A program made the translations under genes and the position numbers. From Bacteroidales bacterium (GTDB lineage Bacteria > Bacteroidota > Bacteroidia > Bacteroidales > JAADJA01), in contig JALSSR010000095.1 in assembly GCA_026984135.1 (NCBI GenBank), positions 1,840 to 65,839 of the forward strand: a stretch of DNA of 64,000 bases, written 5' to 3'. Below, one piece after another: positions 12,282 to 42,050 of the stretch (position 1 is the stretch's first letter; each line of letters starts with the position of its first letter). Under the pieces are notes generated by a model. It did not search any database. It saw nothing but the letters and a program-made list of their open reading frames with translations, and was not told the origin of the DNA.

Positions 12282-15200
12282 ATGAAAACGAAATTTAAAA
12301 TATTCATTTCGGTGCTTTTCATAATTACCTGGCCGGTTTTATTGCAAAGTCAAACGATAAACACCACAGCCGGGTCGCCTTCGGAGTGCCCCGGGGAAAT
12401 TGTGGTTCCTGTAACGGTGACTAATTGCAGCGGCGTTGGAGCCATTTCCCTGACCCTTCAATACGATACGGTAGTCCTTACTTATTTGAATTATGAAAAC
12501 GTTCATACGGACTTAACATCAGGATTACTTGTTGTGAACCGGATCGGTAACAAGGTAATAATAAGTTGGGCTTCGACCACAGCTGCCAATATAGGTAGCG
12601 GAACCCTGATGGACATCCGTTTTTCGGGGGTTACAGGAAGCAGCAGCCTGACGTGGGACACACAAACACCGGGTAATTGTGAATACAGCGACTTAAACGG
12701 AAATATTCTTCCTTCTTCTTATACAAACGGTACGGCAACTGTTTATCAGGCACCGGAGATAATTGATTCTCCCGGTGATATTACTGCATTTGTGGGAGAT
12801 GATATCAGCTTTAGCGTGAATGCCGTAGCCGAAAATATAAGCAGATTATGGTACAAAAGTACGGATGGTGGATCAACCTGGGTTCCAACAGGCACAACCT
12901 CAGCTACAATTCATATTAATAATGTAACATTGGATATGAACGGATTTATGTACCGTTGTGAGATTAGCGGAACCTGCGGCCCTGTTGCTACATCCGATGC
13001 GGCAACACTAACCGTAATTCAACCGCTGATAACATCATTTGATATACAGAACGTTTGTCCGGGAAATATTACAATCCCAATACTGACATCCAATTTTACG
13101 GATGTAGCTTCCCTTTCCCTGGCATTTAGCTATGATACTTCAACTTTGACCTATTCGGGTTATCAGAATGTGAATTCATTATTACCCGGAAATTTTGTTT
13201 GTAATGAAGTTGGCGGGATGGTTTATATGTCATGGTCAACGACTTCACCCGTAACTTTCGGAACGGATACAACGCTTGTCGAAATCCGGTTTACCGGAAC
13301 AGCAGGAAGCAGCAACCTGACCTGGGATTTGACAACACCGGGTAATTGTGTTTACACCTATCTGAATGCGGATGAAATTGTTTCGGTATTTGAGAATAAT
13401 TCATTTACTATTTTTCAGGTACCGCAAATCAATATCCAACCTGTTGATAAACTGGTACCGGAAAATACCGGAACTAACTTTAGCGTGACAGCAGTAGCTT
13501 CGGGAATTCATTATCAATGGCAAATCAGTACCGATGAGGGTGGATTGTGGACAGACCTGAGTAATGGAAGCCAATACAGTGGCGTTACAAATGCAACACT
13601 AAACATTTTCAATACATACCTTTCGATGAGCGGTTATTTGTATAGATGTGTTGTGAGTGGATCTTGTACTCCCGATGCCATTTCCAATCCTGCAGAGTTG
13701 ACAGTTCTGCCAAAGATAACAGCTATAGCAGGAAACGTTTCCGACTGTCCGGGATCCATAATCGTTCCTATAGATGTAACCCATTTTATAGATGTTGCAG
13801 CCTTTTCCTTAACACTAAACTTTGATCAGACTATTTTAACGTTTGATAATTACCAATCGTTAAACAGCGCCTTGTCAGGTGGAGGTTTTGCTTTGAATGC
13901 AGTTGATGGAAAAGTTTACATGACCTGGACATCTACTACTCCGGCAACGATTGGTGACGATTTGCTATTGGAGTTGATTTTTACCGGAGTTTCAGGAAGC
14001 AGTACGCTTGCCTGGAATAATACTGATGAAGGTGCCTGTGAGTTCAGCGACATTGACGGGAACATTATTTTTGATAATTATGTTAACGGTAATGTAATTG
14101 TCTATCAACCACCCGTGATAACCGGCGATCCTGTAAATCAAACGGCTCCCGAAGGAACAAGCACCACATTTACGGTTTCGGCTTCCGGAACAGGCTTGAT
14201 CTATCAGTGGCAGGAAAGCATTGATAATGGGAGTAATTGGGTAGACCTGACAAACACCGGCCCTTATTCGGGGACAAATACTCCCACATTGCAAATCAGT
14301 CTCGTTGGACAAACAATGGATGATTATCAATACAGGTGCAGGGTGTCGGGCACATGTTCGCCACCGGCTTTTTCAGGTGCTGCAATATTACATGTGACAC
14401 CTCCCATAATAATTACTTCTGCCGGAGATATTACAAATTCCTGTACGGGAAATATTACCGTTCCGATAACCGTAAGTAATTGCAATAATGTTGGGGCCAT
14501 TTCCCTGGTTCTGAATTATGATAATACAAAACTAACTTTTGAGGGATACCAGTCGCCGAACAGCGAGTTAAACGGAGGGATGCTAATTGTAAATGCGACA
14601 GCTACACAGGTTATTCTCAGTTGGGTTTCTACAGATCCGGCAGACATAGGTTTTGGAACATTGATAGAATACAATTTCAAGGCCGATGCCGGTATTTCGA
14701 CAACACTTACCTGGGATACGCAAACACCGGGTAATTGTGAATACAGCGACCCTTTTGGAAATATATTTGCCACGGCATTTAATACCGGTGATATATCCAT
14801 TAATGCCAATGCTATAATAGTAGATGCGGGAAATGACGAGTCTATTACACCCGGAGGTTCGGTTCAACTTAATGGTTCCGTAACAGGAGGCACACCACCT
14901 TATATCATTCAATGGACACCAACAACCTGGCTGTCAGACCCGAACATCTTGAATCCCATTGCTGATCCGCCTTCTACAACAACATATACTTTGACAATAA
15001 CTGATGATGTTGGATGTACAGGCTCGGACAAAATGACCGTAAATGTTTCAACAGCAGGCATTGATCTTCATTTGAAAGCTTTTCTTGAAGGACCATTCAG
15101 CGGAACAGAGATGGGTACAGCATTGAACAGTAATAATATGATTCCTTTAAATCATCCCTATTCAGGGTCGCCATGGTATTATGGAGGTTCGGAATATGTA

Positions 15201-15731
15201 ACATCAATTCCCAATACGGATGTTGTTGACTGGGTGTTGGTTGAATTGCGCCAAACAAACGGACCGGCCTCAACGGCGACGAGCGGAAAAAGAATTGCAA
15301 GGCAGGCAGGATTTATCCTGAAAAACGGGAATATTGTTAAAACCGATGGTTCGGGTATGTTGCATTTTGATGTAACAATTACTCAAAACCTTTATGTAGT
15401 TGTCTGGCACCGAAACCATTTGGCAATTATGTCTTCCGGGCCTTTATCAAATGTTGGAGATACTTATTCCTGGGACTTCACCACAGGTTCCGGTCAGGCA
15501 TACGGAACAGATGCACAGAAAAACCTGGGTGGCGTTTACGGTATGTATGCAGGCGACGGTGATGCCAACGGAAAAGTCGAAACGGCTGACAAAAGTAATG
15601 TCTGGAGCGTACAGGTTGGTCGAACCGGTTATAAATCAGGTGACTTTGATATGAATAGTCAGGTGATGAATCAGGATAAAAATGAATTATGGGTACCCAA
15701 TGTTGGTAAAAATTCACAGGTGCCCGATTAA
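12282..15731 (+). CDS. scaffoldin-like secreted protein: (cohesin-like - Ig-like)x3 - cohesin-like - small beta domain - shared C-terminal dockerin-like module
   Basis: 1149 aa with a signal peptide. Four ~130-aa modules carry CPG.I.VP..V.....V.A.SL.L.YD...LT...Y......(approx aa 25-155, 246-378, 473-607, 701-835). They alternate with ~90-aa Ig-like modules (..YQWQ.S.D.G..W.DL...YSG....TL.I......YRC.VSG.C). Confidence 0.8.
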   Translation: MKTKFKIFISVLFIITWPVLLQSQTINTTAGSPSECPGEIVVPVTVTNCSGVGAISLTLQYDTVVLTYLNYENVHTDLTSGLLVVNRIGNKVIISWASTTAANIGSGTLMDIRFSGVTGSSSLTWDTQTPGNCEYSDLNGNILPSSYTNGTATVYQAPEIIDSPGDITAFVGDDISFSVNAVAENISRLWYKSTDGGSTWVPTGTTSATIHINNVTLDMNGFMYRCEISGTCGPVATSDAATLTVIQPLITSFDIQNVCPGNITIPILTSNFTDVASLSLAFSYDTSTLTYSGYQNVNSLLPGNFVCNEVGGMVYMSWSTTSPVTFGTDTTLVEIRFTGTAGSSNLTWDLTTPGNCVYTYLNADEIVSVFENNSFTIFQVPQINIQPVDKLVPENTGTNFSVTAVASGIHYQWQISTDEGGLWTDLSNGSQYSGVTNATLNIFNTYLSMSGYLYRCVVSGSCTPDAISNPAELTVLPKITAIAGNVSDCPGSIIVPIDVTHFIDVAAFSLTLNFDQTILTFDNYQSLNSALSGGGFALNAVDGKVYMTWTSTTPATIGDDLLLELIFTGVSGSSTLAWNNTDEGACEFSDIDGNIIFDNYVNGNVIVYQPPVITGDPVNQTAPEGTSTTFTVSASGTGLIYQWQESIDNGSNWVDLTNTGPYSGTNTPTLQISLVGQTMDDYQYRCRVSGTCSPPAFSGAAILHVTPPIIITSAGDITNSCTGNITVPITVSNCNNVGAISLVLNYDNTKLTFEGYQSPNSELNGGMLIVNATATQVILSWVSTDPADIGFGTLIEYNFKADAGISTTLTWDTQTPGNCEYSDPFGNIFATAFNTGDISINANAIIVDAGNDESITPGGSVQLNGSVTGGTPPYIIQWTPTTWLSDPNILNPIADPPSTTTYTLTITDDVGCTGSDKMTVNVSTAGIDLHLKAFLEGPFSGTEMGTALNSNNMIPLNHPYSGSPWYYGGSEYVTSIPNTDVVDWVLVELRQTNGPASTATSGKRIARQAGFILKNGNIVKTDGSGMLHFDVTITQNLYVVVWHRNHLAIMSSGPLSNVGDTYSWDFTTGSGQAYGTDAQKNLGGVYGMYAGDGDANGKVETADKSNVWSVQVGRTGYKSGDFDMNSQVMNQDKNELWVPNVGKNSQVPD
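15060..15728 (+). other. shared C-terminal module, copy 1 (223 aa, ends ...GKNSQVPD)
   Basis: IDLHLKAFLEGPFSG.EM...VDWVLVELR...HRNHLAIMS...GDGDANGKVETADKSNVW...GDFDMNSQVMNQDKNELW...QVPD. Alignable along its full length with copies at 17769, 21083 and 25977. Confidence 0.85.
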
Positions 15732-15926
15732 AATAAAGCCGGGCAGGGCTTTTTCCCTGTGACGGCCGGACGTTCTTTATACCGAAAGAAATCAGGTTTG
15801 CAACTTTATTGGTTGATTTCTTTCGAGTATAACTGGTTCTAAGAAGGTTTGTTTTTGCAAACATGTCAAGAACCAGTATACATCTTCGCAAAACCGGACT
15901 TGACATCCGGAATAATATCCGAATTA

Positions 15927-15958
15927 ATCCCCGCTTTATTTCAAAGCGGGGATTTTTT
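15927..15958 (+). terminator. rho-independent terminator-like hairpin
   Basis: ATCCCCGCTTT-atttc-AAAGCGGGGAT followed by TTTTT. Confidence 0.6.
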
Positions 15959-15959
15959 A

Positions 15960-15967
15960 TATCTTTG
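15960..15967 (+). promoter_or_regulatory. candidate -7 box TATCTTTG
   Basis: TAnnTTTG match 26 nt upstream of the ATG at 15993 and immediately after the terminator. Confidence 0.4.
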
Positions 15968-15992
15968 CCGAAAACAGAAATCCTCCAGGAAA

Positions 15993-18437
15993 ATGAAAAG
16001 AATTTTCTCTTTATTCATACTACTTTTGATGCTGCTGTCACAAGTATATTCAGATAGCGTCCCCATTGCAAAAGCTCATAAAATTGCCCGGAATTTTTTT
16101 GAATTATGTTTTTCTAAGAATAAAACATTTGAAAGAGAACTTTCTTCCGCAATTGCCAGTGACGGTTATTTTGTATTCAATCTGAAAAACAATGATGGAT
16201 TTATTATTGTTTCGGGGGATGATGATTTGCCTCCGGTTCCGGGATACTCCTTCTCGGGAAGTTTTGATAATGACAATAATAATGAAGCATTCCGTCTTTG
16301 GATGAAGGGGTTTTCGGCTTCAAGAGCTAATGGGAAAAGTTTGTCTGAGATCAAATCGGAATGGAATAAATTGTTAAAAGGTGATTCGGGAAAATCTGTT
16401 ACCGGAGTTGGTCCGCTTCTTACAATTGCCTGGGGACAAGCCTGTTACTATAATGCTAAGTGTCCCGTTGATTCCAATGGAAATTGTTACCACGCACGAA
16501 CAGGCTGCGGAGCAACCGCAATGGCTATGATAATGAAGTACTGGGAATTTCCCGCTCACGGTTATGGCGGCAATTCTTATCAAAGTCCTCTTTACGGGAA
16601 TATTTCCGCCGATTTTGAAAATACTTGGTACGACTGGCAAAATATGCCTCCCAAACTCTATTCCACAAGTGATACCGTACAGGTTAATGCCGTTGCCCAA
16701 TTGATGTTTCATTGTGGTGTGGCAGTGAATATGGTTTACGGACCTGCTGCATCCTCTTCCGATGAGTGGAATATCAGAAATGCTTTTACCAACTATTTCA
16801 AATATTCTTCACAATCACAGTATCTTGATAAAGCCGATTTTGCCGATACCGTTTGGAGAGATATTATGAAAAATGAGATTGATAACGGAAGACCTGTTTT
16901 TTACGAGATATCTTCCGGTTCGGGAGGCCATTTCGTTGTTATGGACGGATATCAGGACGACGACTATTTTCATTTTAACTGGGGCTACGGAAACCTAAAC
17001 GGCTATTATAAAACCTTTGACGAACTCCCTGTTATCCAGCAGGCTATAGTAAATATAAAACCCAATAGCGATACGGTTTCCGGAACTGCAACATTTTATT
17101 CCTACAACGGAATATTTAATGATGGAAGTAACGAAGAGAATTATCTGCCGGGGAAAACATTTTCCTGGCTCATTGAACCTGAAGATGCCACATCGTTGGC
17201 CTTGATGTTCACCCGGTTTTCGACTGAGTATAAAGCCGATTTTGTAAACATTTACGACGGTGATAATATTACGGCACCTTTACTGGGAAGTTTTTCCGGG
17301 CACAAATTGCCGCCCGTAATTCAAACATCCGGCAACAAGGCTCTTGTCAGGTTTGTTACAAATGACTCCGTTACCGATGCTGGATGGGAACTGCGGTTTA
17401 CAACTTTGCGAAACGGTTATTCTTGTTCCGGCGTTTCCCTGTTGACCGACTCCACAGGCACTTTTGACGACGGAAGCGGAAGCTCGAATTATATTGACAA
17501 TGCCGACTGCTTTTGGCTGATAAAGCCCGATACGGCAAGCAGTATTACTCTCCATTTCGATAATTTTAACACCGAAAAGGACTGGGATTTTCTATATGTT
17601 TACAAAGGTGAAAATCCTGCTCCCGAAAATCTTCTCGCAACACTGACTGGGAACATTTCTCCGGCTGACATAACTTCCACGGAAGGCGCGATGCTACTGC
17701 ACTTTCATTCCGACTGGAATACAAACCGGCCGGGTTGGCAGGTCTCCTATACAACCGGCTATGAAAAGATTTATCTTGATTTAAAAGTGTTTCTCGAAGG
17801 GGCTTTCACCGGGACTTCGATGGATACGAATCTGAGGCAGTTTATTCCTTTGTCGCAACCATTTGACAATAATCCTTCGGCAAATTATTATTACGAAGGT
17901 ACGGAAAGTGTTAATGAAATGCCTTTGGGTGTTGTGGATTGGCTATTGATTGAATTGCGCAACGCCGCAAGTGCATCCCTTGCTACCGGCGAAACAATAG
18001 TTGCACGTCAGGCTGCGCTTCTAACCGATAACGGTCGGATAGTAAATACCGACGGGTCATCTGTTTTATCGTTTAATCATTTTGTCAATCAATCTTTATT
18101 TGTGGTCATATATCATCGCAACCATTTGCCCGTTATGACAGCCAATCCGCTTACGGAATCGGGAGGGATTTATACATACGACTTTACAACGCCAGCCGGG
18201 CAGGCCTATGGAACCGATGCACAGAAAAACCTTGGGAGTGTTTATGGTATGTATGCCGGGGATGCCAATTGTGACAATTCCATTAATATTTCTGACCTTG
18301 CCGATTTTTGGTTAGACGAAACCGGATTACAGGGATACCTTAATTCGGACTTAAATTTGGACGGACAATCGAATAATATTGATAAAAATGATGTCTGGTT
18401 GCCGAATGAGGGGAAGGAATGCCAGGTGCCGGAATAA
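15993..18437 (+). CDS. secreted C10-family (streptopain-like) cysteine peptidase with two CUB-like domains and the shared C-terminal module
   Basis: Start moved to MKRIFSLFILLLMLLSQVYS (signal peptide). Spi-inhibitor-like N-terminal propeptide. Catalytic Cys context TGCGATAMAMIMKYWEFP and His context GGHFVVMDGY. Two CUB-like segments (GTFNDGSNEENY..., GTFDDGSGSSNY...). Confidence 0.8.
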   Translation: MKRIFSLFILLLMLLSQVYSDSVPIAKAHKIARNFFELCFSKNKTFERELSSAIASDGYFVFNLKNNDGFIIVSGDDDLPPVPGYSFSGSFDNDNNNEAFRLWMKGFSASRANGKSLSEIKSEWNKLLKGDSGKSVTGVGPLLTIAWGQACYYNAKCPVDSNGNCYHARTGCGATAMAMIMKYWEFPAHGYGGNSYQSPLYGNISADFENTWYDWQNMPPKLYSTSDTVQVNAVAQLMFHCGVAVNMVYGPAASSSDEWNIRNAFTNYFKYSSQSQYLDKADFADTVWRDIMKNEIDNGRPVFYEISSGSGGHFVVMDGYQDDDYFHFNWGYGNLNGYYKTFDELPVIQQAIVNIKPNSDTVSGTATFYSYNGIFNDGSNEENYLPGKTFSWLIEPEDATSLALMFTRFSTEYKADFVNIYDGDNITAPLLGSFSGHKLPPVIQTSGNKALVRFVTNDSVTDAGWELRFTTLRNGYSCSGVSLLTDSTGTFDDGSGSSNYIDNADCFWLIKPDTASSITLHFDNFNTEKDWDFLYVYKGENPAPENLLATLTGNISPADITSTEGAMLLHFHSDWNTNRPGWQVSYTTGYEKIYLDLKVFLEGAFTGTSMDTNLRQFIPLSQPFDNNPSANYYYEGTESVNEMPLGVVDWLLIELRNAASASLATGETIVARQAALLTDNGRIVNTDGSSVLSFNHFVNQSLFVVIYHRNHLPVMTANPLTESGGIYTYDFTTPAGQAYGTDAQKNLGSVYGMYAGDANCDNSINISDLADFWLDETGLQGYLNSDLNLDGQSNNIDKNDVWLPNEGKECQVPE
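17769..18434 (+). other. shared C-terminal module, copy 2 (222 aa, ends ...GKECQVPE)
   Basis: IYLDLKVFLEGAFTG.SM...VDWLLIELR...HRNHLPVMT...GDANCDNSINISD...DLNLDGQSNNIDKNDVW...QVPE. Confidence 0.85.
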
Positions 18438-18490
18438 AATCTAACACAGAGCGTTTTTACAAATTAAAATATAATCATAAAACAAAAAAA

Positions 18491-21400
18491 ATGACAAAGT
18501 ATCTTTTATTCGTGTTTCTACTTTCGATAAACAATCTTTTCGCGCAATTCCCACCCGATACCATCTGGGAGCCGCAAGCACCTGCCGCCTTGCCGATGCC
18601 GGCCTATTTGCAGGCAGTCCGGGATACCGCCCGCAATATTGATATTACGCGTATCAGCGATACGCTTGCTTTTGGTGTACCGCCGGGCGCGGGAGCCTTG
18701 ATGCCGCAATATGCGAAAATCCAATCGTGGAACGCCGATATGTCCAAAATCCTTGTGGGCTATGTGCATATCCTTAACGCCGATGATTACACCATTTACA
18801 AAAATATCGCAAACGCCTATCAGGGAGGATATTTCAACGATGGCCGGTGGTCAAATACCGATCCCGACATACGGTATTTTTGTTGGGGGGATAATTTTTT
18901 GAAAATAAATATTGAAACTGAAGAAATTGATACGTTACAAAACTTTCCCAATTATGTTGTTACAATTGGCCCCTACGAAGGCAATATTTCGGCAGATGAC
19001 AAATATGTCGTTATTACGAACGATACGGCCATTCAGGGCTTTAACGTCGGGAACAGGGCTTCGCTTTACGATATTGAACTTGATACCGTAGTGGCAAGCA
19101 GGCATTTTCCCGGCTGGGGCTTCGACTGGGCATCCATAACCCCTTCAGGTGATTATATCGCAGTCTCAAATTATGAAACCGATAAAATAGAATTATATGA
19201 CCTTGATTTCAATTTTGTCAAGGTTTTGCTGAACAATACCGAACACGCCGATTTTGCCGTTGATGCCAACGGTGATGAGGTAATCGTGCAGGTAATTCCG
19301 CTATCAATGACAAGGTTGTCCGATAATCATTTTACAGATTTGATAACCGATGCGACATTGTGCGGCTGGCCCCACGAAAACCCCAGTATTGCCGGGCATG
19401 TTTCGGGTAGGAATTTTAATCTCCCGGGATGGGCTTATGTTTCGGCACAAATAAATGAATGCGGCAACGGGAACGGATTTTATTACGACACGGAAATATT
19501 TGCCGTAAAATTAGACGGAAGCGGTACGATACGCCACTTCGGACATGCCCGGTCATCTTTTTCGTCATACGACAGTTATGCAAAAGCAAGCGTCAGCCCC
19601 GACGGCACAAAAATGATTTTCAGTTCCGATTGGAATTTATATCCCAATCCCGATAATACCGTTTATGCTTATGTCTCGGAATTTCACAAAAGTCAATCCC
19701 ACTATGTTTCAACAAGCGGCAATAATGCAAATCCCGGATCAGAAGCCCATCCTTGGCTGACAGTGCAATACGGCCTTGACCATATTTTTTCGGGCGATAC
19801 CTTGATAATCATGGCAGGGGTTTACAATGAAAAAGTGATTGTTCCGGTTTCAGGTGTTTTAATTAAAAACTATCCAAATCAAAATGCCATCCTTGACGGC
19901 ACGGGACTGACCTATTCCGATGCAATTATGGAAATAACCGATCAATCCGATATTACCATCCAAGGGCTCGAAATCGCCAATAATGTGCAACTCGATGCAC
20001 AGGGGATTTTGATTTCGGGAAATTGCCAAAACATTACAATAAAGAACAATAAAATACACGACATCTATTTTTCATCCGACCCAAATGCTCCCGTTAATGA
20101 AAACACAAATAGTCAGCCCCTGATAGTTTACGGAACGCAAACAACGGCTATCTCAGGCTTGCTGATTACCGGAAACGAAATTTACAACTGCCGTCCGGGG
20201 TTTAGCGAGGCATTGTCAATTGATGGGAATGTGGACGGTTTTGATATTAGCAACAATCTGATCCATGACATAACCAACATCGGGATAGTTGCTGCAGGGC
20301 ATTACCAGGTATGCCCCGACCCTTTGCTTGACCAACCTCGAAACGGTGTCATTAAAAACAATCAAACTTATAATTGTCGTTCGCCATACGCAGCTTCGGG
20401 CGGCATTTATGTTGACGGTGCAAAAGATATAGTAATCGAAAATAATACTACTTATCAAAACGATTATGGTATTGAAGTTGGATGCGAAATTACCGGTAAA
20501 TCGGCATCGGGGATTATCGTTAAAAACAACATGATATACAATAACCGGATTACCGGTATTGCTTTCGGTGGTTTTGATTATCCGGCAGGTTCGGGAAAAA
20601 TTGAATCCTGTACTTTAAACAATAATACCCTTTTTCAAAACGATTCCATTAGTGATTACAATGGGGAAATGCTGATTACCTATACCGAAAATTGCAATAT
20701 TTTTAATAATATTTTCAGTACGACAAATCAGGACATAGCTTTTTATCTTGATATTGCTCCGGTCAACCTTTTTTTGGATTACAACCTTTATTTTTGCCCG
20801 GGGGGAAATATTTCTCTGGAGTTTAGTTGGAACGGAACAACCTATATGGGGCTTTCATATTTCCGGAACGGAACGGGGCAAGCTGCACATTCCATTTTCG
20901 GTGACCCGCAATTTGTTTCGGCTCTTTTGCCGACTCCCGACCTTCATTTACAAAACACATCCCAAGCTGTAGATAATGGTGATCCTGCTTATGTTCCCGC
21001 AACTGGCGAAACGGATATTGACGGGGAAAACCGAATTGTTAATTTCATAGTTGAAATAGGTGCCGATGAATTGACCGGAATATTGCTCGACCTGAAAGTT
21101 TTTCTTGAAGGACCTTTTAACGGAACGGAAATGAACCCCTCGTCAGGCTTGGAATCCTTTCCGTTAGCCCAACCGTACAATGTTGCCCCTTGGAATTATC
21201 AGGGGACTGAATCGGTAGTATCAATACCCAGTGGAACGGTGGATTGGGTATTGATTGAATTGCGCGATACAACCGAGGCTTCATTGGCAACCCCTGAAAC
21301 CGTAATTGCGAGACAAGCTGCATTATTGATGAATGATGGGAAAATTGTTGATACGGCAGGTACAAACGTACTGACGTTCATCTCAAAATCCGTATCGAAC

Positions 21401-21748
21401 AACCTGTTCGTGGTAATACGGCACAGAAACCATCTCGCCATTATGTCGGCAAATCCGGTAACCGTATCAGGCGGCATTTATTCATACGATTTCACTACGG
21501 CAATAACACAGGTTTACAATGGAGGTGCAGGGTATAAAGAGATAGCAACGGGCGTTTACGGAATGGTGGGCGGCGATGCCAATGCCGACGGCACTATTGA
21601 CGCAGCCGACAAAACCCTCTGGGCAAACGATGCCGGTACCAAAGGCTACAAAGCCACCGACCACAATATGGACGTTCAGGTGGACAACCGGGACAAAAAC
21701 GGTACGTGGGCAGGGAACGGGGCATATTCGGGGCAGGTGCCCCAATGA
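18491..21748 (+). CDS. secreted protein: TolB/PD40-like beta-propeller + right-handed beta-helix (pectin-lyase fold) + shared C-terminal module
   Basis: Start moved to MTKYLLFVFLLSINNLFAQ. Propeller-like strands (SADDKYVVITND, TPSGDYIAVSN, VSPDGTKMIFSSDWN). Beta-helix repeats (ITIKNNKIHD, ISNNLIHD, IENNTTYQN, VKNNMIYNN). Confidence 0.8.
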   Translation: MTKYLLFVFLLSINNLFAQFPPDTIWEPQAPAALPMPAYLQAVRDTARNIDITRISDTLAFGVPPGAGALMPQYAKIQSWNADMSKILVGYVHILNADDYTIYKNIANAYQGGYFNDGRWSNTDPDIRYFCWGDNFLKINIETEEIDTLQNFPNYVVTIGPYEGNISADDKYVVITNDTAIQGFNVGNRASLYDIELDTVVASRHFPGWGFDWASITPSGDYIAVSNYETDKIELYDLDFNFVKVLLNNTEHADFAVDANGDEVIVQVIPLSMTRLSDNHFTDLITDATLCGWPHENPSIAGHVSGRNFNLPGWAYVSAQINECGNGNGFYYDTEIFAVKLDGSGTIRHFGHARSSFSSYDSYAKASVSPDGTKMIFSSDWNLYPNPDNTVYAYVSEFHKSQSHYVSTSGNNANPGSEAHPWLTVQYGLDHIFSGDTLIIMAGVYNEKVIVPVSGVLIKNYPNQNAILDGTGLTYSDAIMEITDQSDITIQGLEIANNVQLDAQGILISGNCQNITIKNNKIHDIYFSSDPNAPVNENTNSQPLIVYGTQTTAISGLLITGNEIYNCRPGFSEALSIDGNVDGFDISNNLIHDITNIGIVAAGHYQVCPDPLLDQPRNGVIKNNQTYNCRSPYAASGGIYVDGAKDIVIENNTTYQNDYGIEVGCEITGKSASGIIVKNNMIYNNRITGIAFGGFDYPAGSGKIESCTLNNNTLFQNDSISDYNGEMLITYTENCNIFNNIFSTTNQDIAFYLDIAPVNLFLDYNLYFCPGGNISLEFSWNGTTYMGLSYFRNGTGQAAHSIFGDPQFVSALLPTPDLHLQNTSQAVDNGDPAYVPATGETDIDGENRIVNFIVEIGADELTGILLDLKVFLEGPFNGTEMNPSSGLESFPLAQPYNVAPWNYQGTESVVSIPSGTVDWVLIELRDTTEASLATPETVIARQAALLMNDGKIVDTAGTNVLTFISKSVSNNLFVVIRHRNHLAIMSANPVTVSGGIYSYDFTTAITQVYNGGAGYKEIATGVYGMVGGDANADGTIDAADKTLWANDAGTKGYKATDHNMDVQVDNRDKNGTWAGNGAYSGQVPQ
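21083..21745 (+). other. shared C-terminal module, copy 3 (221 aa, ends ...YSGQVPQ)
   Basis: LLDLKVFLEGPFNG.EM...VDWVLIELR...HRNHLAIMS...GDANADGTIDAADKTLW...DHNMDVQVDNRDKNGTW...QVPQ. Confidence 0.85.
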
Positions 21749-21858
21749 TATAAATAAACGTTGCGTCGCTGCGCCGCTGCGTGACTGCTATTAGTCTCAG
21801 TCTCATCTGCTTCAGTAGCAGATATAAATAAACGTTGCGTCGCTGCGCCGCCGCGTGA
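21747..21858 (+). repeat. two copies of a 38-nt GC-rich element (GATATAAATAAACGTTGCGTCGCTGCGCCGC(T/C)GCGTGA), 74-nt period
   Basis: Copies at 21747-21784 and 21821-21858. The core is the same as in the 26665-26883 tandem array. Confidence 0.8.
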
Positions 21859-21896
21859 GAAATCAATCGTTCTTTAAACATCTTCGCAGATGATTG

Positions 21897-21929
21897 CCGG
21901 ACAGGTTTAATTCTGCCCGGTATTTTTTT
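21897..21929 (+). terminator. rho-independent terminator-like hairpin after the 18491 gene
   Basis: CCGGACAG-gtttaatt-CTGCCCGG followed by a T-run. A homologous hairpin lies at 26919-26953. Confidence 0.55.
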
Positions 21930-21934
21930 ATACT

Positions 21935-22341
21935 GGTTCTTATCAGGTTTGCCCCGACCCTCTGCTTGACCAACCGTGAAGCGGTGTCATAGAAAACAAT
22001 ACTGCTTATCAAAACGATTCGATCAATGATTTCAAAGGTGAAATTCTGATAAGCTATACAAAACATTACACTGTTTTTAATAATATTTTCAGTACGACAA
22101 ATTAGGACATAGCCTTTTATCTCGATGTTTCTCCTGTAAACCTCTCTTTGAAATGTTCGGCGGCGATGGGAATGCAGATGGAAACATCACCGGTTATGAT
22201 AAAGATATCATCTGGAAACCGGCAGCCGGTACAAAAGGATATTTAAATGCCGATTTCAACCTGAAAGATCAGGTTGAAAACAAGGATAAAAATGATGTCT
22301 GGACGGATAACCTGAATGTTCCCGAGCAGGTTCCTAAATAA
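21935..22341 (+). pseudogene. decayed paralog of the 18491 gene (mosaic of its 3' half with large deletions; last 62 codons still open, ending EQVPK)
   Basis: Nucleotide stretches match 20306-20370, ~20440-20470, ~20650-20780 and ~21555-21748 of the upstream gene. There is an in-frame TAG (acaaattaggac versus acaaatcaggac). The 22153-22341 ORF keeps GDGNADGNITGYDK...DFNLKDQVENKDKNDVW...QVPK. Confidence 0.75.
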
Positions 22342-22575
22342 AATACTGTCGGTTTGTTATGAAAAATCATTTTTTTTGCCTCTTGTAATCCTCAGAGAAA
22401 CAGTGGATTGTGAATTTTGCTACCTTTTGAAACCGTCAATATAACCTTTTGCATACCCGTAATATTTTATTTACGCCTTTTGTGAATGTATTTTTGCCTG
22501 TGATGATTTTTTTAGCTAAAGATGGAAAATGCAAACAATGAAAAAAATAGGTATATGAACTTAAATTTAAAAACA

Positions 22576-23319
22576 ATGAAAAGGACAAATTTACTTTTTT
22601 CGGCTGCTATCGTCATTTTATTCATGCTTTTGGGTGGATGTTCAAAAGATGATGATACAACAAATGTTTCACCACAAAAAGATCCTCCCGTTTATGCGGG
22701 TAAGACCGTTACACCGCCGGACGCACTTATACAATCTTCGGATCCCGGTGCTCAGGAAGCCGCAATGTATATTAGTATGGCAAACAGCTTTGCAAATATG
22801 GCCGGTGGTTATATGACACCTCCCGGAAAATCATCCGGCTTTAAATCAACTAACGGTGACGGGCCTCCCTGGGTATATTCGTGGGATGTCAATGATGAAT
22901 CCGGGACCTATACTATTACCCTGACAATCAATGAAGATTCGGAAGGAAGCGATTGGAATATGAAAATAACAGGTGTTGTGGATGGCAACACTTTTACAAA
23001 CTTCACCTATATAAGCGGATGGCAATCGTCTGATGGAAAGGCCGGTAATTTTACTATATATGATTGGGATACGCAAGATATTGCTTTTACAATGTCGTGG
23101 ACAACAGACGATAACAATGTTTATACTTTGACTGTTGAATTTCCCGAAGATTCCAAAATAGTAATCACTTCAAATCCTGACAATTCCGGTACCATTGAAT
23201 TTTATGAATGGACAGGCAATGATTTCGGTCTTTCTTTCAAGGCTGTTTGGGATACGGCCGGTCATGGTGAGTACTGGGAATATGAGAATGGTGAGGTAAC
23301 CGAACATGGAACTTGGTAA
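22576..23319 (+). CDS. hypothetical lipoprotein
   Basis: Start placed at MKRTNLLFSAAIVILFMLLGGCSKDDD (signal peptide plus lipobox Cys). I recognise no family. Confidence 0.6.
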   Translation: MKRTNLLFSAAIVILFMLLGGCSKDDDTTNVSPQKDPPVYAGKTVTPPDALIQSSDPGAQEAAMYISMANSFANMAGGYMTPPGKSSGFKSTNGDGPPWVYSWDVNDESGTYTITLTINEDSEGSDWNMKITGVVDGNTFTNFTYISGWQSSDGKAGNFTIYDWDTQDIAFTMSWTTDDNNVYTLTVEFPEDSKIVITSNPDNSGTIEFYEWTGNDFGLSFKAVWDTAGHGEYWEYENGEVTEHGTW

Positions 23320-23339
23320 AAACTTTTAAAATATATAAT

Positions 23340-26300
23340 ATGAAGACACTAATCAATTTTTTAACGGTAATATTTTTCCTGACCATTGGCGTGTCGGGAT
23401 TAAATGCAGCAATAATCCACTCTATGCCCACAGGGGGCAACTGGCATGAAACAACCACCTGGCAGGAAGGCGTAGTCCCCGGCCCCACCGATGACGTGGT
23501 TATTGTCGGCGGAAGTACCGTCATTGTATATAATGCCGGACACGAATGCCACAACCTGACCCTTGAAAACAGCGCAGTATTGCAAAACCGCACCTATTCT
23601 AACCAGACACTATTGGTGCACGGAAACATATCCAATTACGGTTCGATTCAAAACAACACTTCTTATTCCTTAACAATTAACCTTGAAGGTAATTTCGATA
23701 ATTATGGTTTGGTAAACAATTTTCGTATCAAATTTACCGGAAACTCCGGGCACGAAGTATATTGCGATGCGGGAGATGTTTTTGAATGTACATATTTTGA
23801 AGCAGCCGACACTACGGGCAACTTGTCCCTTTTGAACAATATTGAATTTATCGGTACGGTCATTGACCTCAACGGCGTTGAAATCATAGGAAACACCTAT
23901 GCTGTCAAACTGTCCGGCGGCAGTTATGTTCAGGAAACCACCATCCATGATTTTACGGTTCAGGGAAAATTCATCTTTCGTTCTTCGGTATTTTTTGAAG
24001 GGGAAATCATTGTTCAGGACACTTTGTATAAACCTCTAAATAGCAATCTCAACCTCTATATTGACGGCAACCTGACAAACAATGGCGTAATCACAAAACC
24101 CAATTACAATTTCAACATTTACATCACCGGAAATATTGTGAACAACGGGCAATGGCTATGTAATGCCGTTCATTTTACGGGTACCGGATTGCAAAACGTT
24201 TCACTCGGAAGCGGAAAAGTCTTTGATTGTACTTATTGGATTGATGACGATAGCGGTTCTGCTATCGAAGCGCTTACGGATTTGTCGTTTACGGGTACGA
24301 ACATTGACCTGAACGGCAGCACCTTGACCTTGCCCAACGGCGGTCATACATTAAGTCTATCGGACGGATATATAAAAGATGGGGAAGTAAACTTTAATTA
24401 TGGGACATTGTTTATGGAAAACGATGCTTATATTGGTTCAGATTTATTGCTTGATAATGTTACTCTTGAAGGGGTTGTACAGTTGCGTAATAATGGTATC
24501 GAATTTTCGGGCGATATAATCAATAATGCCTTTTTGCGGAATTATGTTAATTCTAATATTTCTACCACCATCACCGGGAATATTACCAACAACGATACTA
24601 TTACCGATCCCAATTATAACTTTTACCTTAATGTAACCGGGAATATTACCAATAATGGGGTTTGGTCGATTAATCGAACAAATCTTACGGGCAGCGGCAA
24701 CCATACTATATCGCAAGGTGCAAGCGATATCTTTTCGGGAAATTATTTTAATGCGGCTGATACCACAGGAAATATTACCGCCCTTAGCGATATAACATTT
24801 GAAGGAACCAATATTGACCTTAACGGGCGTACATTGACAATGCCTGCCACAAAGGGTTCATTGCTCAGTCTGTCCGGTGGGTACATACAGGATGGGGAAG
24901 TAAATTTTAATTACGGGACATTGTTTATGGAAAACGATGCTTATATTGGTTCAGATTTATTGCTTGATAATGTTACTCTTGAAGGGGTTATCCAATTGCG
25001 TAATAATGGTATCGAATTTTCGGGCGAAATAATCAATAACGCCTTTTTGCGGAATTATGTTAATTCTAATGTTTCTACCACCATCACCGGAAATATTACC
25101 AACAACGACACTGTTACAGATCCAAACTATACTTTTACCCTCAATGTTACGGGAAATATTATCAATAATGGGATTTGGTCAATTTCTCACACCAACCTGA
25201 CAAGTACAGGACCACACACTTTATCATTGGGCAGCGGAAAATTGTTTTCGGGAAATTATTTCGAAGCCGAAGCAGGGACAGGGCTTATCACCGCCACCAA
25301 CGATATTGTTTTTCTCGGAACAGATGTTGACCTCAATGGCAGTGAAATGGCGATGCCCGATGAAAAACGGTTTTCCATACTCGGCACCTCAACGAATAAT
25401 GCTCATTTGGACGATGGCACCCTCAGCGGCGATAACTTTGAATTTGAAGGTAACGATTATTCCGATTTTGAGAATATCACATTCTCGGGTAATGTAACTT
25501 TATTCGGAAATGTAAGAGCGGTTGCCAGTGCCGATACTTTCCTTGGGGATGTGGATGTGCGCGATACGCTCAGCACCCGTACAAATACAAACTCCACGCT
25601 TACCATCGAAGGCAGGTTGATCAACAACGGCGCGATCATCAACAGCAATTACCATCTTTTTTTAAATTGCCACGGTCATCTTGTCAATAATGGTACATGG
25701 ACAAATTCCCAAACTACACTGAACGGCACAGAAGACCAGTTGATTTATCTTGTCTCGCAAAAACCTATTGATGGCTATGTCAGTTTTGACGCTGTTAATG
25801 GAAGTAACCCTTTTCAGTGGTACCTCGAAGACACCGTTTTGAACTCACTGGATTTTACGGGGGAAACATCCCAAATCCTGAACTGGCAAGTCCCTGTTTC
25901 CGATACTTATAGCGGTGATTTCTATTGCATCGGCAGCGGCGACACTTCAAGAACGATTGTTGTAAAAAGCGGTATTATCGTTGACCCGAAAATTTATTTG
26001 CAAGGACCTTACAACGGAACGGATATGAATACCGATTTATCTGATTTGGGTTTAATTCCATTAAACCAGCCGTTCAATATGTCGCCGTGGAATTATAATG
26101 GTAGCGAAACCGCACCCTCTATCCCTTCCGATGTGGTTGACTGGGTTTTGGTCGAACTCCGGCAAACTTCCGGCGGACCCGAAACCGCCACTTCCGGCAC
26201 CATTGTGATGCAGCGTGCATTATTGCTGAGGAATGACGGAGTAGCGATAGACCCCTATAATTTTACACCCGAATTAAAGTATGATATTCAGGTAACGGGT

Positions 26301-26651
26301 AATATTTATCTTGTTATCTGGCAACGGAATCACCTCGGCGTAATGTCGGCGGTTTCTATTGGCGGATTATCCCCTGCAAGATATGATTTTACAACCTCCG
26401 CTTCGCAAGCCTACGGAGGTACCGATGCCTTGATAGATCTGGGCAATGGTGTTTTCGGTATGATGGGGGGCGATGCCGATTACAGCCAGACTATCACAGA
26501 TCAGGATTTAGATGGCTTTTGGGAACCCAATGCGGGAAAACCCACGAACTATGACGCGGCAGATTTTACCCTTGACGGTCAGTTGGACAATAAAGACAAA
26601 GATCAAACATGGGCAAAAACCTTGGGAAAACAGACTCAGGTGCCCAACTAA
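23340..26651 (+). CDS. large secreted repetitive beta-helix-like protein with the shared C-terminal module
   Basis: Start moved to MKTLINFLTVIFFLTIGVSGLNA. About five ~170-aa modules (..GNITNNG.I..PNYNF.(L/I)(N/Y)(V/I)TGNI(T/V)NNG.W....). C-terminal module as in the three upstream genes. Confidence 0.8.
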   Translation: MKTLINFLTVIFFLTIGVSGLNAAIIHSMPTGGNWHETTTWQEGVVPGPTDDVVIVGGSTVIVYNAGHECHNLTLENSAVLQNRTYSNQTLLVHGNISNYGSIQNNTSYSLTINLEGNFDNYGLVNNFRIKFTGNSGHEVYCDAGDVFECTYFEAADTTGNLSLLNNIEFIGTVIDLNGVEIIGNTYAVKLSGGSYVQETTIHDFTVQGKFIFRSSVFFEGEIIVQDTLYKPLNSNLNLYIDGNLTNNGVITKPNYNFNIYITGNIVNNGQWLCNAVHFTGTGLQNVSLGSGKVFDCTYWIDDDSGSAIEALTDLSFTGTNIDLNGSTLTLPNGGHTLSLSDGYIKDGEVNFNYGTLFMENDAYIGSDLLLDNVTLEGVVQLRNNGIEFSGDIINNAFLRNYVNSNISTTITGNITNNDTITDPNYNFYLNVTGNITNNGVWSINRTNLTGSGNHTISQGASDIFSGNYFNAADTTGNITALSDITFEGTNIDLNGRTLTMPATKGSLLSLSGGYIQDGEVNFNYGTLFMENDAYIGSDLLLDNVTLEGVIQLRNNGIEFSGEIINNAFLRNYVNSNVSTTITGNITNNDTVTDPNYTFTLNVTGNIINNGIWSISHTNLTSTGPHTLSLGSGKLFSGNYFEAEAGTGLITATNDIVFLGTDVDLNGSEMAMPDEKRFSILGTSTNNAHLDDGTLSGDNFEFEGNDYSDFENITFSGNVTLFGNVRAVASADTFLGDVDVRDTLSTRTNTNSTLTIEGRLINNGAIINSNYHLFLNCHGHLVNNGTWTNSQTTLNGTEDQLIYLVSQKPIDGYVSFDAVNGSNPFQWYLEDTVLNSLDFTGETSQILNWQVPVSDTYSGDFYCIGSGDTSRTIVVKSGIIVDPKIYLQGPYNGTDMNTDLSDLGLIPLNQPFNMSPWNYNGSETAPSIPSDVVDWVLVELRQTSGGPETATSGTIVMQRALLLRNDGVAIDPYNFTPELKYDIQVTGNIYLVIWQRNHLGVMSAVSIGGLSPARYDFTTSASQAYGGTDALIDLGNGVFGMMGGDADYSQTITDQDLDGFWEPNAGKPTNYDAADFTLDGQLDNKDKDQTWAKTLGKQTQVPN
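24378..25403 (+). repeat. 513-bp (171-aa) intragenic tandem duplication, first ~240 nt of the copies about 95% identical by eye
   Basis: gatggggaagtaaa(c/t)tttaatta(t/c)gggacattgtttatggaaaacgatgcttatattggttcagatttattgcttgataatgttactcttgaaggggtt occurs at both 24378 and 24891. Confidence 0.85.
25977..26648 (+). other. shared C-terminal module, copy 4 (224 aa, ends ...GKQTQVPN)
   Basis: IVDPKIYLQGPYNG.DM...VDWVLVELR...QRNHLGVMS...GDADYSQTITDQD...DFTLDGQLDNKDKDQTW...QVPN. Confidence 0.8.
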
Positions 26652-26664
26652 TTATTAACCAAAA

Positions 26665-26883
26665 CCGCTGCGTCGTTGCGCCGCCGCGTGAGCAAAACAA
26701 AACGCTGCGTCGCTGCGTCGCTGCGTGAGCAAAAAAGTAATCGTTGCGTCGCTGCGTCGCTGCGTGAGCAAAAAAGTAATCGTTGTGTCGCTGCGCCGCC
26801 GCGCGAGCAAAAAAGTAATCGCTGCGTCGCTGCGTCGCCGCGTGAGCAAAACAAAACGTTGCGTCGCTGCGCCGCCGCGTGAG
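26665..26883 (+). repeat. six tandem 35-39-nt units: GC-rich core CG(C/T)TGCGTCGCTGCG(T/C)CGC(T/C)GCGTGAGC + A-rich linker (AAAAAAGTAAT / AAAACAAAA)
   Basis: Read directly. Starts 14 nt after the stop of the 23340 gene. The same core occurs twice at 21747-21858. Confidence 0.85.
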
Positions 26884-27050: not shown

Positions 27051-27995
27051 ATGAAAAAAATTCTACTTATTAACTTTGTGATGTTGATTTTTGTATTCGG
27101 TTTAAATGCTCAGGATCAGCAATTAAGCAATCCCGGTTTTGAAGAGTGGGAAGATGTTGGTGTGGGGCAGGATGAGCCTGTCAAATGGAGTACGATCAAG
27201 ACTTCGGATAATCCAACAATTAACTCTGTTGCTCCGGTAACCTGGGCAAAGAGTGATACTGCTCACAGCGGCAGCTATTCCGTCAGAGTATTTAACCTTA
27301 CTACCATTATCGGAGCCGTTGCCACAGGTAGCGTGACAAACGGACGGTTTCATACCACTTTTGTTCCGGAAGAAGGTTATGTTTATACCGATCCGGAAGA
27401 TTCGCAGTGGAGTGAACCCTTCACCGGAAGACCCGACAGTGTAGCGGTTTGGATTAAATTTTACCCGACGGATATTGACACGTTACAGGCAAAGTTTTTA
27501 TTGCATAAAGATGAAGGTACACTTGCAATACAGCCTGAAAATGAAGATAATGTAATTGCTCTTGCAAAAATTAACCTCACTGGAGTTCATGATGAATGGA
27601 CAAGGGTAGTTGCTCCTTTTGTTTATGAAAGTAATGAAAATCCCGAATATATTCTTGCCGTTCTTACTTCAGGTGCCGGATTAAATGCCGTTGCCGGTAG
27701 TATGGCGCTTTACGACGATGTGGAGATCATTTACGGACCTGATGCGGTTAACGATAATATGTTTGCCAACACAAAAATATTTTATAGCGATGGCGCCGTC
27801 AGAATCGGCAATTTACCTGCCGGTATGAACAATTCAACCGTTGAAGTAATTGATTTGACGGGAAGAGTCCTTGTTAAGGACAAGCTTACGGGTGACAGCA
27901 TTGATGTTTCGGATAAAGATATCAAATCCGGTATATACATTGTGAGAATCATCAATGAGAAGGGTGGCTTTTCCGCGAAGTTGTTTATCAGGTAA
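27051..27995 (+). CDS. secreted PCMD-like (putative carbohydrate-metabolism domain) protein with T9SS C-terminal sorting domain
   Basis: 314 aa with a signal peptide. NPGFEEWEDVG...PVKWSTIKTSD N-terminal pattern. C-terminus VEVIDLTGRVLVKDKL...SGIYIVRIINEKGGFSAKLFIR. Confidence 0.65.
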   Translation: MKKILLINFVMLIFVFGLNAQDQQLSNPGFEEWEDVGVGQDEPVKWSTIKTSDNPTINSVAPVTWAKSDTAHSGSYSVRVFNLTTIIGAVATGSVTNGRFHTTFVPEEGYVYTDPEDSQWSEPFTGRPDSVAVWIKFYPTDIDTLQAKFLLHKDEGTLAIQPENEDNVIALAKINLTGVHDEWTRVVAPFVYESNENPEYILAVLTSGAGLNAVAGSMALYDDVEIIYGPDAVNDNMFANTKIFYSDGAVRIGNLPAGMNNSTVEVIDLTGRVLVKDKLTGDSIDVSDKDIKSGIYIVRIINEKGGFSAKLFIR

Positions 27996-39915: not shown

Positions 39916-40047
39916 ACCTGTTATTAATGTGTATAAATATACTAAAACGTATAAACTTTGCAAATTTTCTTTTATGTAATTACCTGAACTATAGTAAATT
40001 TAACTCGAAGAAATTTGCATTTTCGTTCAGAATCAGTTTAAAAGGAT

Positions 40048-40320
40048 ATGGAAAACGAAATAATTCACGAAAATAATAAATTCTATACTGTTGTAGAAGG
40101 ACAGGAGTGTCACCTTCAATATACAATTGAGGAGGGCGACACTATTGTCTTTTACCATACGTATGTTCCACCTTCTTTACGCGGTCGCGGATTGGCAATG
40201 AAAATAATCAAAGAAGGACTTGATTATGCAAAATCTCAGAATATGAAATTTATTCCCGCATGCTCTGCAGTCAGAACTTTTGTGAGAAAATATCCTGAAT
40301 ATGAGGAGAATATGAGGTGA
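40048..40320 (+). CDS. small GNAT-family N-acetyltransferase (YjdJ-like)
   Basis: 90 aa. HTYVPPSLRGRGLAMKII...FIPACSAV pattern. Confidence 0.65.
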   Translation: MENEIIHENNKFYTVVEGQECHLQYTIEEGDTIVFYHTYVPPSLRGRGLAMKIIKEGLDYAKSQNMKFIPACSAVRTFVRKYPEYEENMR

Positions 40321-40532
40321 TGCTTTGATAATAAAATGAGGTTTATGTTTTCCACGAATATTGAATTGTAATATTGAGAAAGAGGTTCTTTTGCACCCGA
40401 AAACCTTATCTTTTAACAATACTCTTTAGATAATAAAGCCCGATTCGGAATCAAGTTTGCTTTTTATATCGTTATAAGTTTTTGAACATCCCCACAATAG
40501 AACAATTATCAAGACTACAAGATGAGAACTTT

Positions 40533-41678: not shown

Positions 41679-41690
41679 AATAGTTGAATA

Positions 41691-41813
41691 TTAATCAATT
41701 GGAGGCTTTGCATAGCAGTCGGTCAAACAGGTATATTGGCCGGACCAAGCCGGACATTCAACTACATATTGCATTAATTCCGGATCATAATAAATTTTTT
41801 GGGGAATAGACAT
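41691..41813 (-). CDS. possible 40-aa Cys-containing peptide immediately upstream of the propeller gene
   Basis: My translation: MSIPQKIYYDPELMQYVVECPAWSGQYTCLTDCYAKPPID. Its stop is 12 nt before the propeller ATG. An overlapping 43-aa signal-anchor ORF (41774-41905, MKKILVLIMIIATIGILLSVTKYSESEENKKC...) lies in another frame. Confidence 0.25.
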   Translation of the reverse strand: MSIPQKIYYDPELMQYVVECPAWSGQYTCLTDCYAKPPID

Positions 41814-42050
41814 TTCTTATTTTCTTCCGATTCTGAATATTTCGTAACTGATAAAAGAATGCCTATTGTAGCGATAATCATTATTAGTACTAATATTTTT
41901 TTCATAATAGGTATATTTAAGTTAAACATTTATTTGATTAAAATGGCTGCGAATATATATATATAACTATGCAAGTTTTTTGCAATATTTTTTCAAAAAA
42001 GTTATTAATAATTGTTCTATGCAGTGAAATCCCGTACATTCGAGTCTTTC

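Follow-up and report, generated by a model that had tools for sequence, protein, structure and literature searches.

Cohesin-dockerin assembly is textbook biology of Gram-positive cellulosomes, and both the dockerin fold and the X-dockerin (XDoc) arrangement are already known. In Bacteroidetes, dockerins have been reported in general terms (PMC6487960). Here we analyzed a 64,000-nt Bacteroidales stretch of DNA (the window), in which four open reading frames (ORF1 to ORF4), all on the plus strand between positions 12282 and 26651, each start with a Sec-type signal peptide and end in a ~222-residue module. In the literature on cohesins and dockerins with the secretion system termed type IX (T9SS), on X-dockerins of Bacteroidetes, and on new types of T9SS C-terminal domain (CTD), we found no description of this module. 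We show that it belongs to a very large protein family, that its C-terminal part is related to dockerins, and that it takes the place of the T9SS type A CTD on otherwise similar proteins. The explanation that we favor, with some reserve, is that the module provides calcium-dependent docking of Sec-exported passengers onto surface scaffolds that bear cohesins and are T9SS-anchored, an alternative to anchoring the passengers directly by a CTD.

Fold and relationship to dockerins

Structure prediction, which an earlier sequence-only reading of this DNA had proposed as a check, places a beta-sandwich and a dockerin-like half in a single unit. The AlphaFold2 (AF2) model, obtained with an alignment of 111 sequences, had a predicted local distance difference test score (pLDDT) of 97.2 and a predicted template-modeling score (pTM) of 0.93, with the sandwich at residues 1–160, helices at residues 175–185 and 204–214, and a tail ordered to the last residue (pLDDT 94). 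In a Foldseek search against the PDB, nine of the 12 top matches were type II X-dockerin dyads of cellulosomal scaffoldins, namely ScaA of A. cellulolyticus (4u3s_B and 4wi0_B) and CipA/CipB of C. thermocellum (2b59_B, 4fl4, 5k39_B, 5m0y_B, 3kcp_A, and 5g5d_B). These matches had probabilities of 0.7–1.0 and template-modeling (TM) scores of 0.50–0.64 over 170–228 columns, normalized by the 156-residue target. Given that such scores exceed the possible contribution of a ~60-residue dockerin, the match extends to both halves and to how they are arranged relative to each other.

The dockerin half was examined at the sequence level. Both calcium loops of all four copies follow the pattern D-x-[DN]-x-[DN]-x-x-[IV]-x-x-x-D, with D or N at positions 1, 3, 5, 9, and 12, and in the alignment of the copies a helix start, DK..W, stands after each loop. 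The loop pattern and the AF2 helices agree with the earlier view of a dockerin-type C-terminal end, here a duplicated calcium-binding loop-helix in the last ~60–70 residues. The sole PDB sequence match of the 111-sequence profile was the C. cellulolyticum dockerin 2vn5_B, which was aligned across both loops (E 0.8). Pfam Dockerin_1 matched two of the four window copies weakly (11.2 bits, E 0.44, versus a gathering cut-off of 22.9 bits). Divergent members of the family passed this cut-off: P0122 with 25.1 bits and P0124 with 33.2 bits, the latter within one module of its five-module tandem array. Based on the loop pattern, the 2vn5_B match, and the Dockerin_1 scores of divergent members, we consider the last ~60 residues a true dockerin; following the predicted model, we regard the whole module as an X-dockerin-like dyad, with the two parts forming one rigid unit. 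An hhalign comparison of the dockerin half with the canonical dockerin of the neighboring ORF 7123–12270 showed no relationship (probability 1.6%).

The four copies share 44–50% pairwise identity, and 58 alignment columns are invariant. The invariant blocks listed in the sequence-only reading are essentially correct, with three small deviations: copy 1 reads PLNHPY at the block PL.QP(Y/F), H replacing Q, and copy 4 reads PKIYLQG at the block LK.FLEG and ARYDFT at the block Y.YDFT. The module's invariant polar and aromatic residues are mostly in the sandwich half (LEGP, PL.QPY, PW.Y.G.E, VDW.L.ELR, and HRNH), in copy 3 (21083–21540) as across the family, and this half may thus have a separate binding or metal site. 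Residues 1–154 of the module had no match in Pfam or NCBIfam.

Exchange with the type A C-terminal domain

Two unrelated architectures carry either the module or the T9SS type A CTD, exchanged at one and the same junction. In a set of 120 proteins homologous to the ORF2 passenger, the module forms the end of 29, while about 88 share the I69/C10/CUB architecture and carry Pfam Por_Secre_tail instead; Por_Secre_tail was present in none of the 29 module-ending C10 homologues, and the module hidden Markov model (HMM) matched none of the others. Similarly, a metagenome scan with a cohesin profile recovered the four-cohesin scaffold of the ORF1 family in nine module forms and ten type A CTD forms, the latter being 48–52% identical to ORF1 up to residue ~920–937, where the module starts.

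Co-occurrence of the two domains, counted with a CTD HMM of our own, was limited to one of 261 module proteins and to one of the 107 module ORFs in genome loci, which also hold 34 CTD ORFs. In the window, this CTD HMM matched only ORF 7123–12270 and ORF 27051–27995; given that both end in a type A CTD, the source organism uses the T9SS. The four module proteins had no match to the type A models TIGR04183 and PF18962 or to the type B models TIGR04131 and PF13585, no type A or type B CTD structure was among the Foldseek PDB matches of the module, and no PorP_SprF family member was found among the window ORFs scanned. Since the module is located where orthologues carry the type A CTD, it could be an alternative surface "address label."

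Family size, hosts and architectures

The module had no significant match in Pfam, NCBIfam release 20, or PDB sequences, and the check for an existing family that the sequence-only reading had suggested returned none in Pfam or NCBIfam, where the ~150–160-residue beta domain is unnamed. The profile search suggested by the same reading to establish range and partner domains revealed a very large Bacteroidales family with varied partners. Across 1.84 billion cluster representatives (clusters at 50% identity), we obtained 14,524 matches at E ≤ 1e-3, 10,723 at E ≤ 1e-10, and 3,645 at E ≤ 1e-30. In a word-indexed search, the source name was "hypothetical protein" for all but one of the best 120 matches, the exception being an apparent Joint Genome Institute (JGI) mis-annotation as DUF937.

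In GTDB contigs, with one genome per species, 591 module stretches were confirmed. The best 80 of these all came from uncultured Bacteroidales/Bacteroidetes metagenome-assembled genomes (MAGs), a few of them labeled Chlorobiota. Host sources were anoxic sediments, springs, and digesters. Genomes contained several copies of the module, frequently clustered, with at least two module ORFs in 26 of 78 loci. Among 42 representative full-length carriers, passengers included Peptidase_C25 with propeptide (5), Cohesin (5), GEVED, beta-helix, MAM, M14, M28, and PKD domains, and these passenger types are typical T9SS cargo.

The commonest short architecture was a standalone protein of ~296 residues (for example P0013, P0029, P0040, P0055, P0059, and P0081), composed of a signal peptide, a ~55-residue four-strand piece (SPEVVASAGDYYE..SLSWTLGEIATETYSNG..ILTQGFQQP) with no Pfam match, and the module. 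AF2 modeling of one standalone protein with a C-terminal extension, P0026, yielded a pLDDT of 35–58 for the dockerin half and was uninformative on the order of the extension. Fib_succ_major (PF09603) was recurrently fused C-terminal to the module (P0130, P0153, P0155, P0175, P0233, P0237, P0255, and P0257). At L082 2671–5596, a separate gene for Fib_succ_major comes after a standalone module gene, the sole such adjacency among the standalone-gene neighborhoods.

The QVP tail

The C-termini of the four window copies read NSQVPD, ECQVPE, SGQVPQ, and QTQVPN, a remnant of a fifth copy reads PEQVPK, and a stop codon follows immediately after each. Tail statistics were calculated on 255 modules from other organisms, in which Q was conserved at 92%, V/I/L at 98%, and P at 99%; this conservation bears out the earlier argument that the QVPx end is no by-product of recent duplication. 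The coding sequence stopped within one residue of P in 200 of the 255 modules, so that ~78% are at the extreme C-terminus, and exactly one residue followed P in 182 of the 255 (71%). That residue was D, E, N, or Q in 170 of these 182 terminal modules (93%). Where a short extension of 2–30 residues follows QVP, about 27 of 33 proteins end again in C-x-[VI]-P-x-COOH, as in QVP|DGITKGYQCQVPE.

The module is not restricted to protein ends. In many proteins, Fib_succ_major domains lie C-terminal to it; tandem arrays contain three modules in P0121 and five in P0124; it stands directly behind the signal peptide in P0206, P0213, P0233, P0237, and P0119; and P0133 and one ORF of L013 have a genuine type A CTD C-terminal to it. 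At internal boundaries, Q-V-P (or Q-I/L-P) is retained, with a variable next residue. Given that internal, tandem, and N-terminal modules also retain QVP, it seems to be the structural end of the fold, with no need for a free carboxylate, and it would usually be terminal because dockerin-type modules usually are. Therefore, the proposal in the sequence-only reading that QVPx is a free-carboxyl sorting or processing signal did not, for the most part, hold, and neither did its suggestion of a non-canonical T9SS CTD, given the internal copies and the lack of sequence or fold similarity to type A and type B domains.

The constrained D/E/N/Q end may be a polar cap against tail-specific proteases, or its last side chain may have a calcium- or hydrogen-bonding role. 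A Cys stands just before Q (profile column 218) in 28 of 250 modules; a disulfide role for this residue was considered and set aside, since no partner column was found. A sortase- or exosortase-type signal (LPXTG, PEP-CTERM, GlyGly-CTERM) was rejected, given that there is no hydrophobic tail and that in all copies the stop comes one residue after QVP. A type I secretion system signal was ruled out by the Sec signal peptides on module proteins.

Candidate cohesin partners

ORF1 is scaffoldin-like in its domain sequence: Pfam Cohesin was found in four stretches (E 8e-23) together with Ig_3, a cohesin HMM of our own gave four matches, and a PKD/SprB-like repeat lies just N-terminal to the module. 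Orthologues of identical architecture are present in L001, L002, and L084–L104. Pfam Cohesin was also present in five of the 42 representative module proteins, and proteins with both cohesins and a type A CTD were common in related loci, with one to seven cohesins and lengths of 2,000–3,000 residues.

The large CTD protein directly upstream of ORF1, ORF 7123–12270, is a candidate surface anchor. Its domains in order are a Kelch propeller, beta-helices, and, within aa 1331–1706, a sandwich resembling CarboxypepD_reg, the canonical Dockerin_1, the cohesin-like region, and the type A CTD. The region between its dockerin and its CTD resembled cohesin weakly (hhalign E 2e-4, probability 45%; window HMM E 0.018), and the equivalent region in the orthologous neighbors of loci L096, L105, and L109 gave cohesin HMM independent E-values of 3e-4 to 8e-7. 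It is probably a divergent cohesin, on weak evidence from these profile comparisons. The large CTD protein and the four-cohesin scaffold, 11 nt apart in the window, form a gene pair that is conserved across about 20 loci of other metagenomes and MAGs, regardless of the C-terminal domain on the scaffold. We had considered the cohesin-like neighbor as specific to module-form scaffolds, an idea rejected because it also lies beside CTD-form scaffolds.

Proposed docking and its alternatives

In the docking mechanism that we favor, an "X"-like beta-sandwich of ~160 residues, with a long and highly conserved N-terminal loop region, is packed on a dockerin of ~60 residues, whose two calcium-binding loop-helix repeats would mediate calcium-dependent docking. 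The docked passengers would include the four-cohesin scaffold, beta-helix proteins resembling adhesins, and peptidases of the C10 and C25 types. As candidate partners at this locus, ORF1 offers its four cohesins, and the T9SS-anchored ORF 7123–12270 offers its cohesin-like domain.

Several results weigh against this mechanism. On the structural side, Foldseek E-values were modest (best 8e-3), no window copy reached the Dockerin_1 threshold, and the sandwich half had no sequence similarity to known X modules in PDB sequences, Pfam, or NCBIfam; it is also 1.6 times larger than they are, and its invariant residues are more than would be expected of a passive spacer. On the genomic side, the standalone genes of ~296 residues lie in housekeeping neighborhoods with no constant partner gene. 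ORF1-type cohesins were rare, with 17 short fragments retrieved from the protein collection by the cohesin profile and an occurrence in three of 78 module loci; given that they are far rarer than the module, most modules must bind other cohesin types or something else. Docking accounts neither for the preference for D/E/N/Q after P nor for the subfamily that rebuilds C-x-VP-x-COOH. Finally, docking gives no explanation for the passage of CTD-less proteins through the outer membrane in an organism with a T9SS.

To our knowledge, such bacteria have no route over the outer membrane for a protein that lacks a CTD and is not a lipoprotein. Given that a swap that trapped its protein in the periplasm should not persist and expand to thousands of families, we propose tentatively, and with less confidence than docking at the surface, that the module itself confers outer-membrane export. 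It could do so as a T9SS signal of a third, structurally unrelated class, recognized in part through its constrained ...[SC]-Q-V-P-[DENQ]-COOH end. Alternatively, it could dock in the periplasm on a cohesin in a protein that has a CTD, and the two would pass the T9SS translocon together in a piggy-back manner.

The narrower proposal that the module, or its free QVP[DENQ]-COOH end, is a third class of T9SS CTD, perhaps processed at the tail and recognized by the translocon or shuttle, agrees with several of our results. On two unrelated architectures, the module stands precisely where the type A CTD otherwise would, with almost no co-occurrence; the passengers are classic T9SS cargo (C25 with propeptide, C10, M14, M28, beta-helix, and PKD), all those seen have Sec signal peptides, and all hosts seen are T9SS-bearing Bacteroidales. 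The extreme C-terminal position of ~78% of modules, the constrained last residue, and the rebuilt C-x-[VI]-P-x-COOH in 27 of 33 short extensions point the same way. However, the absence of TIGR04183, PF18962, TIGR04131, and PF13585 matches, of a CTD among the fold matches, and of a PorP/SprF-like partner gene among the scanned window ORFs speaks against it, as does the length of 220 residues versus 70–100 for a CTD. Moreover, the module is found where a CTD could not work, that is, internally, in tandem, after the signal peptide, before Fib_succ_major without a CTD, and, in P0133 and L013, N-terminal to a real type A CTD, and QVP is kept at the internal boundaries. We consider this proposal unlikely.

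A calcium-dependent anchor for a ligand such as a surface glycan, lipopolysaccharide, or a substrate polymer, in which the likeness to XDoc would be architectural only and no cohesin would be bound, seems slightly less likely still. It would suit the strongest conservation being in the beta domain and its long loop, where many polar and aromatic residues are invariant, as is typical of a binding site, and it would also suit the frequent fusion or adjacency of Fib_succ_major domains and the far greater abundance of the family relative to ORF1-type cohesins. Carbohydrate-binding modules (CBMs) and a Bacteroides putative carbohydrate-binding protein were among the low-ranking fold matches, but the CBM matches had probabilities ≤0.3 and TM scores ≤0.23, versus probabilities of 0.7–1.0 for XDoc, and the transitive homology to Dockerin_1 and the enrichment of Cohesin among module proteins (5/42) favor docking. 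As for the idea that the shared module and QVPx are a mere trace of recent local gene duplication without particular function, a 12-kb stretch holds four copies plus a pseudogene, and the latter shows ongoing duplication and decay; nevertheless, copies only 44–50% identical, 14,524 clusters, and QVP conservation of 92–99% refute it, and we give it virtually no weight.

Docking of the module onto cohesins would give thousands of "hypothetical" C-termini a name and a testable function, and it predicts non-cellulosomal surface protein networks in Bacteroidota. The replacement of the T9SS CTD by the module on otherwise identical proteins raises the question of how proteins without a CTD reach the surface.

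Features of the locus

The module HMM was built from the four window copies and run on a six-frame translation of the whole window, where it matched the four copies (E 9e-117 to 3e-109) and the remnant (22153–22338, E 2e-20), with no further match at E < 1. These matches and the ORF translations confirm the four copies and the remnant at the positions first read from the sequence (Table 1).

The remnant comprises the last ~62–65 residues of the module (HMM positions 158–222, ...EQVPK, stop) and belongs to a collapsed pseudogene of an ORF3 paralogue, which has three short degenerate beta-helix pieces, in-frame stops, and large deletions, followed by the module tail. The beta-helix pieces are 82–87% identical at the nucleotide level to interior ORF3 segments; the module tail is far more divergent, at 39–48% amino acid identity to the intact copies.

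A 39-bp tandem repeat (5.6 copies, unit TGCGTCGCTGCGCCGCCGCGTGAGCAAAAAAGTAATCGT) spans positions 26669–26883, directly 3' of the ORF4 stop, and two related copies lie 3' of the ORF3 stop (21747–21930). Both sites then share ~100 nt (88% identical) ending in a terminator-like hairpin and T-run.

Among the passengers, an identical ORF2 protein is present in public data (P0262), and ORF3 had weak NCBIfam matches to para_beta_helix and choice-of-anchor Q immediately N-terminal to the module. ORF 27051–27995 matched Por_Secre_tail in Pfam (E 6e-6) and TIGR04183 (E 6e-9, 35.7 bits versus a cut-off of 23). ORF 22522–23319 encodes 265 residues with a lipoprotein-type signal (LLGGCSKDD), its 3' end overlaps the ORF4 open frame, and it had no match in Pfam or NCBIfam. 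According to library scans of its ORFs, the remainder of the window is ordinary chromosome. A low-GC stretch at 40001–42000 (0.29 versus ~0.40 elsewhere) includes the minus-strand ORF 40533–41678 (381 residues), which had no Pfam match.

Table 1. Positions of the module copies, their carriers, and neighboring features in the window.
Feature	Position (nt)	Strand	Description
Upstream neighbor (ORF 7123–12270)	7123–12270	+	11 nt 5' of ORF1; domains from Pfam, NCBIfam
Canonical Dockerin_1 of ORF 7123–12270	11272–11415	+	aa 1384–1431
Divergent cohesin-like region of ORF 7123–12270		+	aa ~1500–1600
T9SS type A CTD of ORF 7123–12270	12019–12240	+	aa 1633–1706
ORF1	12282–15731	+	signal peptide, four cohesins alternating with immunoglobulin-like (Ig) domains, PKD-like domain, module copy 1
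ORF1 cohesins	12348–12752, 13017–13421, 13707–14111, 14397–14801	+	
Module copy 1	15060–15728	+	in ORF1
Copy 1 beta-sandwich	15060–15539	+	
Copy 1 dockerin	15540–15728	+	
Copy 1 calcium loop 1	15555–15590	+	DGDANGKVETAD
Copy 1 calcium loop 2	15642–15677	+	DFDMNSQVMNQD
Copy 1 tail	15699–15728	+	NVGKNSQVPD
ORF2	15990–18437	+	signal peptide, Inhibitor_I69 prodomain, Peptidase_C10, two CUB, module copy 2 (Pfam)
Module copy 2	17769–18434	+	in ORF2; module HMM E 1e-113
Copy 2 dockerin part	18246–18434	+	tail NEGKECQVPE
ORF3	18491–21748	+	signal peptide, parallel beta-helix passenger, module copy 3
Module copy 3	21083–21745	+	in ORF3; module HMM E 5e-112
Copy 3 dockerin part	21560–21745	+	tail NGAYSGQVPQ
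Collapsed pseudogene of ORF3 paralogue	about 21932–22341	+	tblastn and blastn versus ORF3; module HMM
ORF4	23340–26651	+	signal peptide, repetitive beta-helix-like passenger, module copy 4; weak G8 match
Module copy 4	25977–26648	+	in ORF4; module HMM E 3e-109
Copy 4 dockerin part	26457–26648	+	tail TLGKQTQVPN
Downstream small protein (ORF 27051–27995)	27051–27995	+	PCMD-like domain and T9SS type A CTD

Comparison with known systems

The T9SS type A CTD (TIGR04183/PF18962) and the module share the extreme C-terminus of Sec-exported multidomain Bacteroidota proteins and the same passenger families, are interchangeable at the C10 and scaffold junctions, and are both conserved to the last residues. 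However, the module is three times larger and not obligately terminal, and in the rare co-occurrences the CTD comes last. With the type B CTD (TIGR04131/PF13585), the module has in common that it is a C-terminal domain of large surface proteins, but it lacks an HMM match to that domain, and no PorP/SprF gene was found among the scanned window ORFs.

As in Dockerin_1 (PF00404), the dockerin half consists of two 12-residue loops and helices with two-fold symmetry (DK..W after each loop); in contrast to Dockerin_1, it is invariably joined to the beta domain, and nothing in Dockerin_1 corresponds to its conserved tail. The CarboxypepD_reg-like and Dockerin_1 pair of ORF 7123–12270 is likewise a small sandwich directly followed by a dockerin. 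Unlike the module, this pair is internal, standing before the cohesin-like region and the CTD, and its first calcium loop is degenerate.

The type II XDoc dyads of CipA/CipB and ScaA (2b59, 4fl4, 5g5d, 5m0y, 4u3s) are the best structural matches in the PDB. In these dyads, as in the module, a sandwich lies N-terminal to and packs on a duplicated dockerin, the position is C-terminal, and the carrier can be a multi-cohesin scaffold, here ORF1. The module differs in its sandwich of ~160 versus ~95 residues, its long conserved loop, the lack of sequence similarity in the X part, and its N.G...QVP[DENQ] end. Furthermore, enzymes and adhesin-like proteins make up most of its carriers, its position can also be internal, tandem, or N-terminal, and its host is a diderm with a T9SS, not a Gram-positive clostridium. 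What is new in comparison with these systems is the module family itself, its size and host range, its distinctive sandwich and tail, and its interchange with the T9SS CTD.

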